Virus record (IMG/VR): IMGVR_UViG_2579778666_000022
Length of the DNA stretch: 27,848 nt
Strand: one strand, 5' to 3'
Source of the DNA: a virus
Taxonomy: Duplodnaviria; Heunggongvirae; Uroviricota; Caudoviricetes
Made by a program: the position numbers. Position 1 is the stretch's first letter. The number at the start of each line of letters is the position of its first letter. Below are positions 6,001 through 18,000 of the stretch, in pieces.

Positions 6001-9000
6001 TCAGAGATCTTTCACGTCTTGGCTGGACTGATGAACGTATCGGAACAGAACTGGGGATGGACCAGGATGAAGTTCTGAGGTTAAAGCAGATTAGCGGGCT
6101 AACGGAGTTATTTCAGCAGGCAGATTTCAGCCCTGCATGGACTGTTACATAAAGTTAGGTTAGGCCTGTGGAGCCGGGGAATCGGAATTAAACATCTTCC
6201 CTCCCCGGTAAATACAAATAAGGGCTGAACATCATCCCGACTACCTCAGATCACCTAATAATATATCAAGATTATTTTGCGCATTAATGCTATTCGCCAT
6301 TACTGTTGCTGCTTCTGGCAACTTTCCAAGAGCAATAAATATATTCTTAAGGCTGATTGGAATTGATGAACCATGCGGATCGCGCCACTCACCGCAAATT
6401 CTGTGAGTTTCATCACAAAGCCTGAACGCATCCCAACCTCCATATTGACCAAAAATTATGTCCATTGACTCTATTTCTGCGGGCGATAACTCCCCCAGCT
6501 CATCAACAGAAGAAAATGTACGCCACATTTCAACCTTATGATCCGCTACATCAGATATCCATGATTCCCACGGACTGTACTCGTTTTCACTTCCATCCTT
6601 AACCAAAGAATATGTCTGCGATAAAACGGGTCCTTTGTTCATAGAGAAATAATGATCACCACTAATGGGAAAACCATACAACTCCATTGCTTTGCGGTCA
6701 GAGAGATACATCAGCTTAATGAAACGCATAGATCCGCCATGTTTTTTCAGCAAATACGCTGCCATTTACGCAACTTTTTCTTCATTAAACATAAATCGGC
6801 TCTCTGTCTCACATGAAATACTCTTTCTGACTATATGTTAATAGCTCCGGTTATTACAGGTTAATGTGTGTTTATTTCTTAATCAGCCCCGCACTTCCGT
6901 ACGGGGCCATTTCTGTTAATCCACTCCCACTTTTTTGTTGTACTCGCGGTTAAAGCGATCCACGGCAACCTTCATATCCCGCTCTACCGATTTCACCATC
7001 GCCGCCTGCTGCGCCAGACTGAGAGAACTGTCGGCATAAATGGCATCGCGCTGTTTGCGCAAATCCTTCAGTCTCTTCCGGGTATCCTGCATAAGCCCGT
7101 TCATCAACAATTTTCCGTTGTTCTCGTCAATGAACGCCGTTCTTTCTGCACCGGTCAGACTCTTCAGCTCTGCGTGATACTGCGCAACCTCTGTCATCCG
7201 GTCGTACATCTTCTGCTGGTCTGCATACGGCATCACCTCACCCGAAATTTTCCCCAGGAAGGGCACCTGCTGCTCCGGTATATCAATACCGTTCAGCGAT
7301 TTCACCGCCGCATCTGTGGTTTTGGAAATGAAGCGCCCTGTCCCTCCGGAGATATAGTCAATCCAGAATTTCAGCGATTCCGGTGTGATATCCACCGCGC
7401 CGGGACGATACTGGCTGCCACCTGAGAACGCATTCAGCCAGGATGCAAACGCCTTGTACGCCTCAGGCGTTGAACGTCTGCCCAGTTGGCTGTCCGGTTT
7501 CGGTGTGCCAAATGGCATGTTCTCCTGGTAAATCTGCGCCCCCATGAAGTTTTCATTCATGGCAAGGTTCGCAAACGGACGCAGAATGGTCGGCGCTGCA
7601 TTTTTCAGCAATGCCCCGGACAGTGTTTCCGACGTTTCACTGCCCACAGGACTGAATGCCCCCAGGATACCACCGACAACATTACCGGCAGCACGTGAAG
7701 CAGTCAGGTCGCCCGCTGCCACACCTTCAGCAGTATGCCCGAGCAGGAAGAAAACGTTGTACCCGTAAGGCAGAGGAATACTCCAGTACTCTCCGGCCTT
7801 GCCCCCGAACACCGATTTCATAATGACGAGGTTACGCTCTTTCACATGAGACGGCACCTTGTCATACCAGTTAACCCCGTCATCATCCTCCCCCGCAACA
7901 CTGCGGTTAAGCGAGCCAAGCAGATAACCCGCTCCCACAGCTGCAAGCGCGATTTTCTGCGGTACATTGAGATTCTTCCAGCGAAGGCGCTCCGGTAACG
8001 GCCCGTCGCCATTAAGATGTCCGAGCGTTCTCACCAGGTTTGCGGTCCCCTGAATGCTGGCGTTGGCAAACATATACAGCGAGTTCATCAGCGCTCCCTG
8101 CTCACCACGACGGTTAAAGTTCACCGTCATGTTTTTGGCAAGAGATGCCGCCTGCTGGCGTGACAAACCGGCATCACGGGCGTGTTTATAGGCAGAAAGA
8201 CGCAGAGCGTTTTCAACCGCGCCGTTGGCATCCTCGACCAGGTTCAGGAACGAATGCCATGCACCGATACTCTGGCCTTTCCATCCTCCCTTCGCCAGCG
8301 ATACAAGGCGATCCATTTCCTTCTGCTGGCCTTCAAGGTCACCCATGTTAAACCAGCCGGTTTTACCTCCATCCTCAACAAACTCTTTCCACACCTTCTG
8401 CCACTGCGCACCGTTGCCCGTGAGGGTTTTACCACGCAGACTGGCGTATACGGCAGACATGGCAGACCGGCTGTCTTTCACCACAGCCAGGGCGGATAAG
8501 TTATCCAGCACTTTCAGTTTACCGTCGCTCCTTCCCTGCTCAGCCTTCAGGTTCATCACCGCCGTCTGCACGTCACGGATGAAGTTACTGACCAGAAATT
8601 CCGGGTTATACGACGTGTTCACCGTTGCCAGGAAACGGTTAACTTTCCCCAGCGTACGGATTACGGCGTTACTGGTTTCCGGCCCCATGTTCTTCATCGC
8701 ACGCATCAGGCGCGGGTCATGGAGTTTGATGTAGTAAGTTTTGCCGTCCTTTTTGGTGGTGAAGTAGCGATCCGCCATCATTGCCATAGGCACCGGACGT
8801 TCAACAACTTCGCGACGGGTTTCGCCGGTTTCCGGATCAACACGCTCTGCAATCGCCCGCATGGTGTCCGGTTTGTCATCAGTGAATACCTGCCAGTAAT
8901 CCTTATCGGGATTATCCTGCACCAGTTTCAGGAAGGCGTTACCCACTTCGTTTTTGCGATTGCGGATCAGCGATTCGCTCAAATCCTGTATCGCCTGAGT

Positions 9001-15000: not shown

Positions 15001-18000
15001 ATTTAAAATACGCGCTCCTGTTTTTACCGGGCTCTGAATCATCGCATCACCGAGTCCACGGGCCATTTCCCCTGCCCCCCGGACGGACTGGGCGACACCT
15101 TTCCCCATAGTTGGCAATACATCGCCCAGGCTGAACGACGTGCTGTTGTCCTTCCAGCGATTGGGATCGGAGAAAAACGCATCATAGCTGTCAGTCTCGC
15201 CCGGCTGCTGAATGTTCAGGCTGTTGCGGTTCTGGTTGCCAAATTGCGCTTCAGGGCGCTGTTCATCGGAATAAGCCATACAGACTCCATAAAAAAACCC
15301 GGCACAATGACCGGGTATCAGGAAATAGTATTAACGGGAATGGTGAATTACTGCGCGTAATTCTGTTTCAGACCACGGATAAACTCAGATGCAGAGGCCG
15401 CACTATCATCTCTGGCCTGTTCCCCCCTGGCCTTTTGAATACGGAGAAAATTCGCATACCCGTTCTCCAGCAATTTCTGATTCTGAGGCTCCAGCATTTC
15501 TGGCTGACGGGAAGCAACTTCTCTGGCGAATGCCTGCTTATCCGGATCATCACCCGCCCAACTGGTAATCCCTTGTTGAATTTTTTGCTGCTGAATTTGC
15601 TGCTGATACTGCGGCAGTCCCATCGAAGCATAATATTGCGTCACTGCTCCCTGCGCATCACCGCCGTCCTGTGCAACCTTTATCGCTACCTGGCTGGCTC
15701 CTTTCTGAAGTTGATCCGCAGAAAGTCCCTGCTGCTTCGGCGTGAAATAGCCGAAATTTTTCGAAATTTCCGCGAATTTACTGCGATCCCTGACAAGCTC
15801 AACAGCCTTATCAACAGGCACCGCCAGCACGGTTTGATCATCAGGATGTGCACTGCCGTATTCCGTAACGGGTTTATGTGCTGTAGAGCCATCACTGTAT
15901 GTGAGATCAAGGCCGATAAGTATGTACCCTTCCTGCTGTGCCGGTACTATACTGCCAATCCTGGCCTCTTTTATCGTCTTTTTCCCGGTTGAATCGGGCA
16001 TGCCAATACGCTGTTGCAGTTCCGGGCCAAACACCCCGGAAAGGACATCAAGATTCTCCGGCGTATTAAGTGAAGCGATAGCCCTGTCCGGCTTGTCATC
16101 AAAGATTTTTTGCAGGTTGTTCACGGCCTGACCCGCTTTCGCTACATAGCCATCATTCGCCATCAGCCTCAGCGGATTACCCTCTGACAACTGGCCGTAA
16201 AGACGCATTGCTGCATCCCGATCGCCAGCATCCACAGCCTTTCCAAGCGCCGCCATCACAGGCTGATCGCGCGCCAGCATATCGTTATACTCAAGCCGTC
16301 GCTGGTTGTATTTCTGCATCCGGAGTCGCTGCTGCTCCATACCCAGCGACGCATTCCGGTAATTCTGGTTGGCGTTAAACTCCCTTTCCTGCAGTGCATA
16401 ATTACGGTCGTCGACTTTGGCTCTGTAATCAAAGTTCCGCTGATCAACGTCTTTATTATGTTCAAACTGCGACTGTGCAAATTCAAAATCGCGCTCGTTA
16501 TTTTTCTGTTGTTGAGCAAGCTGTGCTTCTCGCAAACCAAGTTCCTTACGACGGGTCATTGCCTGGTCAACCGTGCTGAATCCGGCAAGTAAACCCTGTG
16601 CAAATCCGCTCATTCACCACTCCTTAAAACAAAGAACCAGCAATACCACCTATGACAGCACCAATAGCCGCACCGGGGAGACCACCAACAGCAGCGCCCA
16701 TAGCTGCACCCGTACCAATTCCCGTGCCGATATTCTGTTTGTTCTGCGCTTTCTGTTGCGCCGCCATCTGTTTGTTCGCGGCCTCAATTTCTTCACGTCG
16801 TCTGTCGGCATCACTTATTCCCTGTAATGCCTCACGCCGCGACTGATTCGCAATATCCAGTAAACCGTATCCCATATTGCCCCCTTACGCTGACACCAGT
16901 TTTCCGCCAACACTCAGTTGTTGTCTTGCAGGTGCAGAAGCCCCCGTCAGTATGTTCATCTGGCGATCCTGCTCTGCTTCACGGATACCATTTTTCGCGC
17001 CAGCAATTGCCAGAGCATTACGCAAACCCAGTGTGTTACTGTTGGGATTATCCGGGCGGCTTACCCCGTATCTCGCCATCTGGTTATCCTGCGCCATCTG
17101 CGCTGTACGGAGACTGGAAGTGGCAAGGCCGCCCACCCGGGCAAGCTGTGCATTCATCAGGCTGTTGTTCTCACCAAGGTCAGCCAGCCTTGCCACGCGG
17201 GGCAAATATCTGGTTCGCCAGTCGTCGTATTGCTGGCGTGTCAGCGCGGCGGATGTCTGCCAGTCCCCCTGTGGGCGGGCTGCGCCTGAATAACCAGCCC
17301 TTGCGAGAGTTTCGTATTTGCCATACTCCATAATTACAGTCTCCAGTTCTGAGCCTGATGCTGAATAGCATTAGCGCCGGTGCCTGGCGTTTTAGCGCCG
17401 CCACCACCTCCGTTACCGCCAGCCTTATGCATCGCGTACGCACCTACAGCTCCCAGACCAGCGCCAACAAGAGAAGCTCGCCCCTGTTGTTTCGTAAACG
17501 CCGCCTGTGCATCCGATTTGGCTTTTGCCAGACTGCTGTCAGCCAGGGAGTTAAAACTCTGTAACGCATCTGCCTTCTGACCGGAACCGAGAGCCGCAAC
17601 ATCCTGTAGCCCGGCAATATATTTATCTGCCTGCGATACCTGCCCCCGTGTGGTCGTGTCAATCTGCCCGATCACCTGGTCGCTTTGATTTGCATCCATT
17701 ACTGCATTAAAACGACCACTGGATGGGTCAACGCCGGACTGAGCAAGATTACCCGCCAGCTCCCTTCGCGCTTCACCAAACTGTTTCTGATACCCAAGAT
17801 TTGTTGTGCCTGCGATATTTTCGTACTGCTGCTCACTGTTAAGGTCATCGACCTTTTTCATGAAGTTATCTTCTGCCGGACGGAGAATATTTTTGTAATC
17901 CTGCCACCCTTTCCAGGCCACCTCTTCCTGTGCTATTTGCGCTGCTGTTGGTTTTACTTTGGTATCACCACCACCTTTACTTCCGCCCATAATGGCTCCT

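Follow-up and report, generated by a model that had tools for sequence, protein, structure and literature searches.

A giant cysteine-free virion protein of Stx-type short-tailed phages with two predicted zincin domains and an N4-like N-terminal region

The class of protein considered here has been described before (Iyer 2017; Lenart 2013), as has the gene itself (Mondal 2016; Bubenchikov 2026), and because both are published neither is new as a discovery. What we add is an N-terminal homology to phage N4, the constant C-terminal location of a shared module among relatives, and an absence of cysteine that includes four upstream genes. In phage phi24B, the product gp47 is abundant in purified virions (an estimated 11–35 copies or so) without cryo-EM density. 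In gels, about 62% of its counts fall above the peak slice of the 80-kDa portal, with the maximum in the top slice, and about 38% fall in lower slices, a share that, after 6 months of sample storage, cannot separate processing from decay. Its neighbors gp48, gp49, gp50 and gp51 were detected in virions without assigned density, and gp48, gp50 and gp51 have no structure-based abundance. Deletion of the Sp5 counterpart, ORF80, leaves particles non-infectious although DNA is packaged, so that ORF80 is essential; the study concluded that it is 'required for tail formation' and possibly an ATPase. The virion RNA polymerase of N4, gp50, has been called beads on a string: its N-terminal domain binds lipid and inserts into nanodiscs, and residues 224–278 are predicted membrane-spanning helices (PMC12633501). 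The ejection operon of the Schitoviridae is marked by cysteine suppression, and absence of cysteine is a known signature of ejection proteins.

We analyzed a 27,848-nt stretch of a Caudoviricetes record (IMGVR_UViG_2579778666_000022), referred to in full as the window, in which the following features frame the giant gene.

6916–15279, minus strand: giant ORF of 2787 aa with an ATG start, cysteine-free; ortholog of 933W L0134, Sp5 ORF80 (ECs1242) and phi24B gp47
15348–17990, minus strand: four ORFs upstream of it (421, 83, 148 and 218 aa), all cysteine-free
6886–6907, minus strand: hairpin with a 6-bp all-GC stem and a 10-nt loop, 9 nt past the giant-ORF stop codon, without a U-tract
6241–6765, minus strand: small Panacea-domain gene, 150 nt downstream of the giant ORF

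The uninterrupted 8.4-kb reading frame reported in the preliminary description is present as given. Its placement as the last gene of the operon holds in that it is the last virion gene, but the same-strand Panacea-domain gene comes after it. The intervening hairpin, which was found by reading the sequence directly and was not called by a consensus scan, may mark the 3′ terminus of the virion operon; in Bcep22 a terminator is annotated at the equivalent position, after its own giant ORF. On either side of the gene lie conserved late genes, including tail-tip and internal-virion-protein genes, in synteny with 933W L0124–L0134. No stx genes occur within the window, and the prophage region expected to hold them lies outside it.

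The resemblance to short-tailed Stx phages proposed in the preliminary description was borne out by 186 phage records with 90–99% nucleotide identity, including 933W L0134 and phi24B. At the protein level, phi24B gp47, Sp5 ORF80 and 933W L0134 are 92.7–94.2% identical to the window protein, with identical domain order and both HExxH-type motifs, and their genes likewise follow an ORF79-like gene. Divergence from the 933W and phi24B orthologs is concentrated in the first ~230 residues and in the linker at aa 826–1000, the latter varying most between alleles (65–75% identity to both). Their annotations also carry 13 extra residues upstream of the MAYS methionine at which the window copy begins; since these residues hold their only two cysteines, the start codon was probably mis-called there. 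The virion proteomics suggested as a check exists in published form for a 93%-identical ortholog, and both the virion presence seen in phi24B and the essentiality seen in Sp5 can be carried over to the window protein, which is almost certainly packaged. Because the Sp5 ortholog is essential for infectious particles, the protein is more than an accessory anti-defence effector.

Zero cysteines occur not only in this protein (2787 residues) but also in N4 gp50 (3500), Bcep22 gp75 (4602) and the giant protein of Vibrio D60 (3066), and 106 of 126 giant relatives are cysteine-free. The four upstream ORFs, whose orthologs are phi24B gp48–gp51, are probably co-packaged internal or ejection proteins; no similarity was found between the small upstream proteins and N4 gp51 or gp52. 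The giant protein itself matches no tape-measure family in Pfam, PHROGs or NCBIfam, homology of that kind being among the findings that the preliminary description had named as telling against it; none of those findings was made. Further likeness to N4 begins at the N-terminus.

13690–15162, minus strand: N-terminal module, about aa 40–530, phrog_2206 match (E 3.3e-4), homolog of the N4 gp50 N-terminal domain
14683–14739, minus strand: single moderately hydrophobic 19-mer, aa 181–199, AVWVAKGVNLIGALVPDMV
13990–14082, minus strand: Gly-zipper-like segment after the 19-mer, aa 400–430
12280–13962, minus strand: long, largely hydrophobic-poor linker, aa 440–1000

In jackhmmer searches with this module, which sits at the N-terminus in all its relatives, N4 gp50 aa 103–552 was reached in round 2 (E 1.5e-17; reciprocal E 2.7e-12). 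A profile built free of N4 scored the true N4 N-terminus at +25.3 bits, against a best of −10 among 500 block shuffles. By these searches, the first ~500 aa are homologous to the membrane-inserting domain with which the ejected N4 polymerase begins. The reciprocal alignment (N4 224–470 to Stx 178–451) starts where the hydrophobic 19-mer lies. Membrane insertion is not evident from the sequence, because there is just this one weakly hydrophobic segment, and we consider insertion of the module only slightly favored. Like the Stx protein, N4 gp50 is giant, the last late-operon gene, and furnished with long low-complexity linkers; like phi24B gp47, it is multi-copy in the capsid yet invisible in cryo-EM; and it has a small HExxH zincin before a roughly 1000-aa alpha-helical C-terminal domain, a layout that may parallel the Stx one. 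The likeness is confined to these delivery parts. The giant protein has no polymerase Pfam match and no BLAST similarity to N4 aa 998–2103, and an identity as an N4-type virion RNA polymerase was therefore rejected.

The linker includes the Pro/Glu/Gln-rich stretch noted earlier at about 12690–12870 (aa 804–863), which belongs to a longer hydrophobic-poor segment (aa 693–900). Beyond it lie the enzyme-like domains and the C-terminus.

11698–12147, minus strand: LPD5 domain, aa 1045–1194 (Pfam E 7e-44)
10960–11685, minus strand: zincin domain 1 (CLCA_X / phage-type MPTase), aa 1199–1440
11425–11448, minus strand: motif 1, HEWFHSLD (H1278, E1279, H1282, D1285), conserved as HEWxHxxD
11152–11175, minus strand: EMAARAFE helix (E1369, R1373 and E1376 invariant), candidate third zinc ligand of zincin 1
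10300–10872, minus strand: zincin domain 2, minigluzincin-like, about aa 1470–1660
10630–10647, minus strand: motif 2, HEIIHH (conserved H1545, E1546, H1550), HExxxH
10456–10479, minus strand: EFLAHMAE helix (E1601 162/162, E1608 146/162), candidate third ligand of zincin 2
9730–10182, minus strand: MuF-C / PBECR domain with a predicted BECR RNase-toxin fold, about aa 1700–1850
6919–9720, minus strand: C-terminal module, aa 1854–2787 (~930 aa), containing LPD38
7255–7872, minus strand: LPD38, aa 2470–2675

The two HExxH boxes on which attention had first settled lie exactly where they were placed, HEWFH at 11434–11448 (aa 1278–1282) and HEIIH at 10633–10647 (aa 1545–1549), and their measured spacing is 267 residues, as against an estimated 270 or so. 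From the composition of the protein 0.032 such motifs are expected; in 5000 shuffles the probability of at least one was 0.031 and of at least two 0.0004. Both boxes are conserved among homologues, each with a conserved downstream Glu, and a zincin fold is predicted for both domains. HEWxHxxD is retained in 102 of 102 homologues, at identities down to about 40%, and a second HExx(x)H follows LPD1 in 29 of the 35 homologues with enough sequence past that point. Pfam 'LPD1' (aa 1355–1434) corresponds to the C-terminal helical portion of zincin 1 and holds its candidate third ligand: E1369 and E1376 are invariant and fall in a predicted helix, and D1285 is another candidate zinc binder. H1257 (11509–11511) is invariant too, alongside D1285. 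LPD5 is joined to zincin 1 in every member of its homologue alignment (56/56, alignment A1).

The closest structural matches of zincin 1 are anthrax lethal factor and the Pro-Pro endopeptidases (M34), which share with it a zincin core in which a three-stranded sheet is accompanied by the HExxH helix and, further along the chain, by a helix with a Glu. By profile, aa 1176–1431 match the NCBIfam model for CLCA_X, a family over-represented in phages and plasmids and frequently part of proteins >1000 aa (Lenart et al. 2013), with E 4e-44 over model positions 3–245 of 250 (NF041907). The score of 150.9 bits lies below the curated whole-protein cut-off of 260, and the comparison places zincin 1 as a domain-level CLCA_X relative rather than an NCBI-defined family member. 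The published CLCA_X consensus is HExxHxxxD (Lenart et al. 2013), whereas in the window protein, as in each of the 102 homologues, the Asp is the third residue past the second His (HExxHxxD).

For zincin 2, an alignment of 172 homologous domains supports H1545 (157/159) and E1546 (159/159) of the HEIIH box, but the conserved second His is H1550 (141/159) rather than H1549 (His in 64/159), so the functional signature is HExxxH. The third-ligand Glu and the zincin fold are both predicted here as well, in a structure model of moderate confidence (pLDDT 74, pTM 0.47). Its closest structural matches are minigluzincins (selecase, jannalysin), which likewise share the zincin core described for domain 1. 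Against the N4 region C1, hhalign gave a probability of 83% and E 9e-6, over 32 columns only. Both zincins are probably catalytically competent. In the MuF-C / PBECR domain, the Pfam match, the modeled BECR fold, a His in the N-terminal helix region and a Ser/Thr in strand 4 (H1746 and S1810, both invariant) mark it as RNase-like.

The C-terminal module is common to the giant proteins of Vibrio, Burkholderia (Bcep22 gp75), Ralstonia and Bacteroides podophages (tblastn), with BLASTP identities of 41% to Vibrio D60 and 27% to Bcep22, and in 59 of 61 relatives its end is at most 30 aa from the C-terminus. No sequence similarity to N4 C2 was detectable (hhalign probability 4%). The same module terminates different middles. 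Bcep22 gp75, annotated as a 'DarB-like antirestriction protein', is likewise the last virion-operon gene and has an N4-like N-module and a C-terminal ~900-aa module with LPD38, immediately preceded by an HExx(x)H zincin; its cargo is an N-terminal SLT, an Eco57I-type methylase, an SNF2 helicase and LPD3. The Stx protein has LPD5–zincin–LPD1 and PBECR instead, with PBECR inserted between zincin 2 and the C-module, and Vibrio D60 has no other Pfam match. The suggestion of a polyvalent-protein architecture is thus upheld: LPD5, LPD1, MuF-C and LPD38 all score far above their Pfam cut-offs, two zincin folds accompany them, and several unrelated enzymatic or LPD domains encoded among late virion genes correspond to the phage type of Iyer et al. 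(2017).

We read the giant ORF as an internal virion protein of a 933W/phi24B-type short-tailed prophage that is packaged and then expelled, a delivery chassis with cargo (probability about 0.7); its ejection into the host is likely. A cysteine-free chain of folded domains and long flexible linkers would reside in the capsid mostly uncleaved in multiple copies and, at infection, be expelled through the tail. The N-module would most likely fix the protein in the envelope, where it and the four small upstream proteins would contribute to the ejection channel. The middle would carry as cargo LPD5, the lethal-factor-like zincin (HEWFHSLD, E1369/E1376) and the BECR-fold domain (H1746, S1810). The C-module, after the small HExxxH zincin, would form the conserved end common to podophage giant proteins and, if the C-terminal region of the N4 protein is a guide, probably serves to incorporate the chain into the head. 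After ejection, both zincins would most likely cut the linkers and free the cargo domains. Iyer et al. (2017) proposed MPTases as processing enzymes of polyvalent proteins; N4 gp50, whose zincin is similar, enters the capsid unprocessed, and no protease activity has been reported for it. Self-processing after ejection as the main zincin role is accordingly put forward tentatively; the zincins could instead be structural or regulatory, because the phi24B ortholog is mostly intact in virions and N4 gp50 is unprocessed.

The strongest competing explanation, close to the 'ejected effector with protease activity' first envisaged, is one of true effectors: after ejection, zincins and RNase-like domain would cleave host proteins or RNAs, such as defence components. 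Iyer et al. (2017) named this among possible roles; the nearest structures to zincin 1 belong to secreted enzymes whose substrates are specific host or cell-surface proteins; and in relatives the chassis holds cargo of an anti-restriction type, namely a methylase and a helicase in Bcep22 gp75. Allele comparison cuts both ways: PBECR is polymorphic among otherwise near-identical prophage alleles (51% vs >90% in the flanks), as an arms race predicts, but the zincin regions rank with the best-conserved stretches of the gene (mostly 95–100%), unlike a fast-evolving effector. As the gene is also essential on a permissive laboratory host, we consider this explanation unlikely.

Quite improbable is that the protein mainly serves to form or assemble the tail or portal plug, is not ejected and keeps its enzyme-like domains as relics. 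The gene does lie among tail genes, and the heads of the Sp5 deletion mutant are DNA-filled while an anti-tail-fibre antibody does not bind. Yet cryo-EM of phi24B resolves the whole portal–adaptor–nozzle–needle–fibre assembly with no gp47 density despite its abundance, catalytic residues are invariant in three enzyme-like domains, and cysteine absence and the N4 N-terminal homology both point to translocation. The AAA+ ATPase suggested for Sp5 ORF80 (COG1483) was rejected, as there is neither a Walker A or B motif nor a Pfam or NCBIfam ATPase match. The lack of detectable tail fibre in the Sp5 mutant would not be expected if the protein were internal cargo and nothing more, and points to a further function at the portal–tail junction. 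Very improbable, finally, is the phi24B preprint's proposal that the metallopeptidase degrades peptidoglycan peptide stems to let the ejection conduit cross the cell wall, even though podophages must breach the wall and the relatives' chassis holds wall-degrading domains (the SLT transglycosylase at the Bcep22 gp75 N-terminus).

For the packaged-and-expelled chassis favored here, a wider reading is conceivable at somewhat less than even odds: the giant protein of Stx phages, like LPD38-type polyvalent proteins from podophages of Burkholderia, Ralstonia, Vibrio and others, would be a polymerase-less relative of N4 gp50, all of them on one ancient delivery chassis. That chassis would begin with a domain that inserts into membranes, continue with a small zincin and have a large packaging domain at its C-terminus; it would lack cysteine and be ejected along with small partners that are likewise cysteine-free, with cargo swapped by lineage (RNA polymerase, methylase–helicase, or dual zincin and RNase). 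The gene is essential to phages that spread Shiga toxin genes, and the 2026 phi24B preprint poses the organization of gp47 as an unanswered question and puts the peptidase label on the wrong domain. The residue-level map supplied here, with two zincins and their predicted catalytic residues, an RNase-like domain, an N4-like N-terminal domain and a conserved C-module, leads to concrete mutants, and the well-developed N4 ejection model becomes directly testable in Stx phages. If the wider reading is true, the N4-type ejectosome would be a general protein-injection system of podophages, including the medically important Stx phages.

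The giant ORF and its two HExxH motifs lie exactly at the coordinates reported in the preliminary description, whose observation of this ORF and interpretation of its product both proved correct:

6916..15279, minus strand: giant ORF, uninterrupted, ATG start, 2787 codons
11434-11448: HEWFH (motif 1), aa 1278-1282
10633-10647: HEIIH (motif 2), aa 1545-1549

From the composition of the protein, 0.032 HExxH motifs would be expected, and two or more arose at a frequency of 0.0004 in 5000 shuffles. The Pro/Glu/Gln-rich stretch noticed earlier sits within a longer hydrophobic-poor segment (aa 693-900). 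Megablast matched the ORF to 186 phage records (90-99% nucleotide identity), almost all of them from Stx-converting or related short-tailed lambdoid phages. Protein identities to 933W L0134, the giant protein of phi24B and PhiR12_3 are 92.7%, 92.9% and 94.2%, and all three keep both HExxH motifs; the RefSeq name is 'LPD5 domain-containing protein'. The best nucleotide match (96.7%), in phage GER2 (MG710528.1, 71836-82917), aligns in two pieces spanning ~11 kb for the 8.4-kb query, so that the GER2 giant gene appears broken by a ~2.7 kb insertion.

Domain searches of the giant protein yielded the following matches:

aa 1045-1194: LPD5, Pfam E 7e-44
aa 1176-1431: CLCA_X, NCBIfam E 4e-44, under the whole-protein cut-off
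aa 1355-1434: LPD1, Pfam E 2e-23
aa 1744-1835: MuF-C, Pfam E 3e-18
aa 2470-2675: LPD38, Pfam E 3e-48

Iyer et al. 2017 defined all four Pfam domains when surveying polyvalent proteins, and CLCA_X comprises zincins with an enrichment among phages and plasmids (Lenart et al. 2013). Additional Pfam matches to tiles of the protein were all sub-threshold (Gly-zipper; Peptidase_M76, E 0.19). A tape-measure role was rejected, with no such match in Pfam, PHROGs or NCBIfam. Sequence and profile searches found no match to the giant protein among PDB sequences, and fold prediction was therefore needed.

Motif 1 lies in a first zincin domain (zincin 1, aa 1199-1440), where HEWxHxxD is present in 102/102 homologues covering the site, at identities down to ~40%. 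In a 56-sequence alignment, H1257, E1259, H1278, E1279, H1282, D1285, E1369, R1373 and E1376 are invariant. This pattern matches the 'widely distributed phage-type MPTase', in which strand 2 ends in a His and HExxH is followed three residues later by an Asp (Iyer et al. 2017). For the second domain (zincin 2, ~aa 1470-1660), a word-indexed homolog search returned 29 relatives, enterobacterial only; the family became visible by exhaustive search, which returned 390 representative clusters, mostly as parts of proteins 1000-6000 aa long. Among 172 aligned zincin 2 domains, H1545 (157/159), E1546 (159/159) and E1601 (162/162, within an AEExxAxxAE helix) are kept, and position 1549 is His in just 64/159 whereas position 1550 is His in 141/159. 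Since H1550, not H1549, is the conserved position, the sequence HEIIH stands where it was first seen but the conserved signature reads HExxxH...E, a variant mentioned by Iyer et al. 2017. A second HExx(x)H follows LPD1 in 29 of the 35 homologues with enough sequence there, so that the zincin pair is a conserved cassette. Comparing the two zincins by hhalign gave E 0.006 and a probability of 6%, with the strand-strand-helix elements in register; zincin 2 matched the zincin core of C1, a C-terminal subdomain of the phage N4 virion RNA polymerase gp50, at 83% probability but over just 32 columns.

Both ends of the protein have relatives in other giant phage proteins. Its N-terminal ~500 aa (N-module) showed a weak PHROG match to 'virion RNA polymerase' (E 3.3e-4), and an iterated search, using a profile without any N4 sequence, recruited N4 gp50 aa 103-552 in round 2 (E 1.5e-17). 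The reciprocal search from N4 to the Stx protein gave E 2.7e-12, aligning N4 224-470 to Stx 178-451. Against a profile of round-1 members only, the real N4 N-terminus scored +25.3 bits, compared with -10.0 for the best of 500 block shuffles and -38.9 for the reversed sequence. The N-module is N-terminal in 77/77 relatives. In N4 this domain has been implicated in injection. Its helices at 224-278 are predicted to span the membrane, and the domain inserts into nanodiscs (PMC12633501). The C-terminal 915 aa, the C-module including LPD38, are matched by Vibrio phage giant proteins at 41%, by Ralstonia and Burkholderia phage proteins such as Bcep22 gp75 at 27% over 85-87% of the query, and in a Bacteroides phage, with partial, weaker matches in Bacillus and Pelagibacter podophages; the module ends at most 30 residues from the C-terminus in 59/61 relatives. 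Neither HMM search nor hhalign found similarity between the C-module and the N4 subdomain C2. Bcep22 gp75 (4602 aa) and Vibrio D60 gene 21 (3066 aa) each close their own virion operon and carry an HExx(x)H domain directly before the C-module, but their middles are different. The MuF-C/PBECR version (window 9730-10182) differs between alleles: certain prophages of E. coli and Salmonella (proteins P0131 and P0062) have one of ~51% identity between near-identical flanks, suggesting that the RNase-like domain is swapped as a cassette.

Orthologs place the protein in the virion. In the phi24B preprint (bioRxiv 10.64898/2026.04.10.717836), gp47 accounts for 10,962 spectral counts and the capsid protein for 17,998. 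The gp47 maximum is in the uppermost gel slice, ~62% of the gp47 gel counts come from slices above the one in which the portal peaks, and the protein is estimated at ~11-35 copies per virion with no cryo-EM density. The preprint also reports gp48, gp49, gp50 and gp51 in virions with no assigned density, with gp48, gp50 and gp51 at tens of copies and a structure-based abundance of 'ND'. These four are orthologs of the cysteine-free ORFs next to the giant gene (gp48, gp50 and gp51 of three of them):

15348-17990, minus strand: cysteine-free block of four successive ORFs (421, 83, 148 and 218 aa), adjoining the giant gene on its upstream side

Because their orthologs occur in virions without assigned density, the four ORFs are candidate ejection-apparatus partners of the giant protein; they showed no similarity to N4 gp51 and gp52, and two of them end in Gly-zipper-like segments. 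Cysteine is likewise absent from the giant protein, Bcep22 gp75, the Vibrio protein, N4 gp50, gp51 and gp52, and 106 of 126 relatives of at least 1000 aa (mean cysteine frequency 0.017%), and makes up 1-2.5% in most other window genes. Such suppression, linked to passage through the periplasm, is already published for the N4-like (Schitoviridae) ejection operon (Lokareddy et al. 2024), and we take it as supporting evidence. The annotated starts of 933W L0134 (L005:7026-7064) and its phi24B counterpart (L006:1149-1187) add 13 residues, MPGHCAGFFYGVC, and this N-terminal extension holds the only two cysteines of these otherwise cysteine-free 2,800-aa proteins; the starts were probably mis-called, the true one being the MAYS methionine as in the window. 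The 83-aa Gly-zipper ORF (16624-16875, minus strand) shows weak matches to class II bacteriocin models, and the preprint authors dismissed its ortholog gp49 as a contaminating 'bacteriocin', but the location and cysteine-free sequence of the ORF point to a small membrane-active protein of the virion.

The neighbourhood is a standard late region. On the strand of the giant gene, the upstream side carries a phrog_511 'internal virion protein'-type gene (at the phi24B nozzle gene position), a tail-tip gene of the J type, lom and four conserved small ORFs. A GC hairpin lies 9 nt past the giant-gene stop, with a small Panacea-domain gene further downstream, where 933W carries different genes (L0135, and hokW/mokW further on). 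Other features of the window are:

1-4100: host/prophage junction, molybdopterin oxidoreductase gene (1-2397), then two AntA-type antirepressor ORFs
4297-6152, plus strand: PAPS-reductase/DUF3440 protein, 408 aa, and an overlapping 214-aa ORF
6241-6765, minus strand: SocA/Panacea antitoxin-domain protein, 174 aa, 150 nt downstream of the giant gene
24510-25631, minus strand: YadA-like membrane-anchor protein (trimeric autotransporter), 373 aa, cysteine-free, within the late region
27277-27654, minus strand: IS1 transposase fragment at the window's right edge, in the prophage late region

The prophage is integrated, as shown by the host molybdopterin-oxidoreductase gene at the left end. The antirepressor ORFs (2937-3221 and 3309-4100) are apparently one split or duplicated gene. 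The 408-aa protein is presumably IbrA-like, and its overlapping ORF had no Pfam match; a 'PAPS reductase-like' gene (L001:1498-2226) also lies two genes upstream of the Bcep22 giant protein, a recurring association. We take the YadA-like protein to be reminiscent of prophage-encoded Eib proteins.

Starting from the architecture, conserved putative catalytic residues and predicted folds of the giant protein, and from the demonstrated packaging and essentiality of its orthologs, we propose that it would be ejected, with the N-module anchoring it in the envelope, and that the C-module and zincin 2 may serve in encapsidation, the role of the C-terminal region in N4. Since the virion form is mostly intact, the zincins would act after ejection, most likely cutting linkers to free the cargo domains between the two modules. 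That they are instead host-targeting effectors is a possible but less favoured reading. Deletion of the Sp5 ortholog ORF80 left phages non-infectious, with packaged DNA and normal heads but no tail-fibre antibody bound (Mondal et al. 2016); this tail-fibre defect, which a model of cargo alone does not explain, points to a further role where portal and tail meet, although a purely structural tail factor seems doubtful. The AAA+ ATPase suggested there was rejected, with no motif match and no Pfam or NCBIfam ATPase match. A peptidoglycan peptidase we consider unlikely, the least probable of these readings. The preprint bases its peptidoglycan-degradation proposal on 'a Muf-C metallopeptidase domain', but MuF-C is an RNase-toxin fold, and the actual HExxH domains lie elsewhere in gp47, absent from the description in the available text.

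The protein class was already known from 2013 and 2017, the essentiality of the gene from 2016 and its virion location from 2026. To these we add an accurate map of the domains, the recognition of motif 2 as HExxxH, homology to the N4 gp50 N-terminus backed by shuffle controls, a 'constant ends, variable middle' organization and a cysteine-free five-gene block, which together sharpen a known story rather than open a new one.
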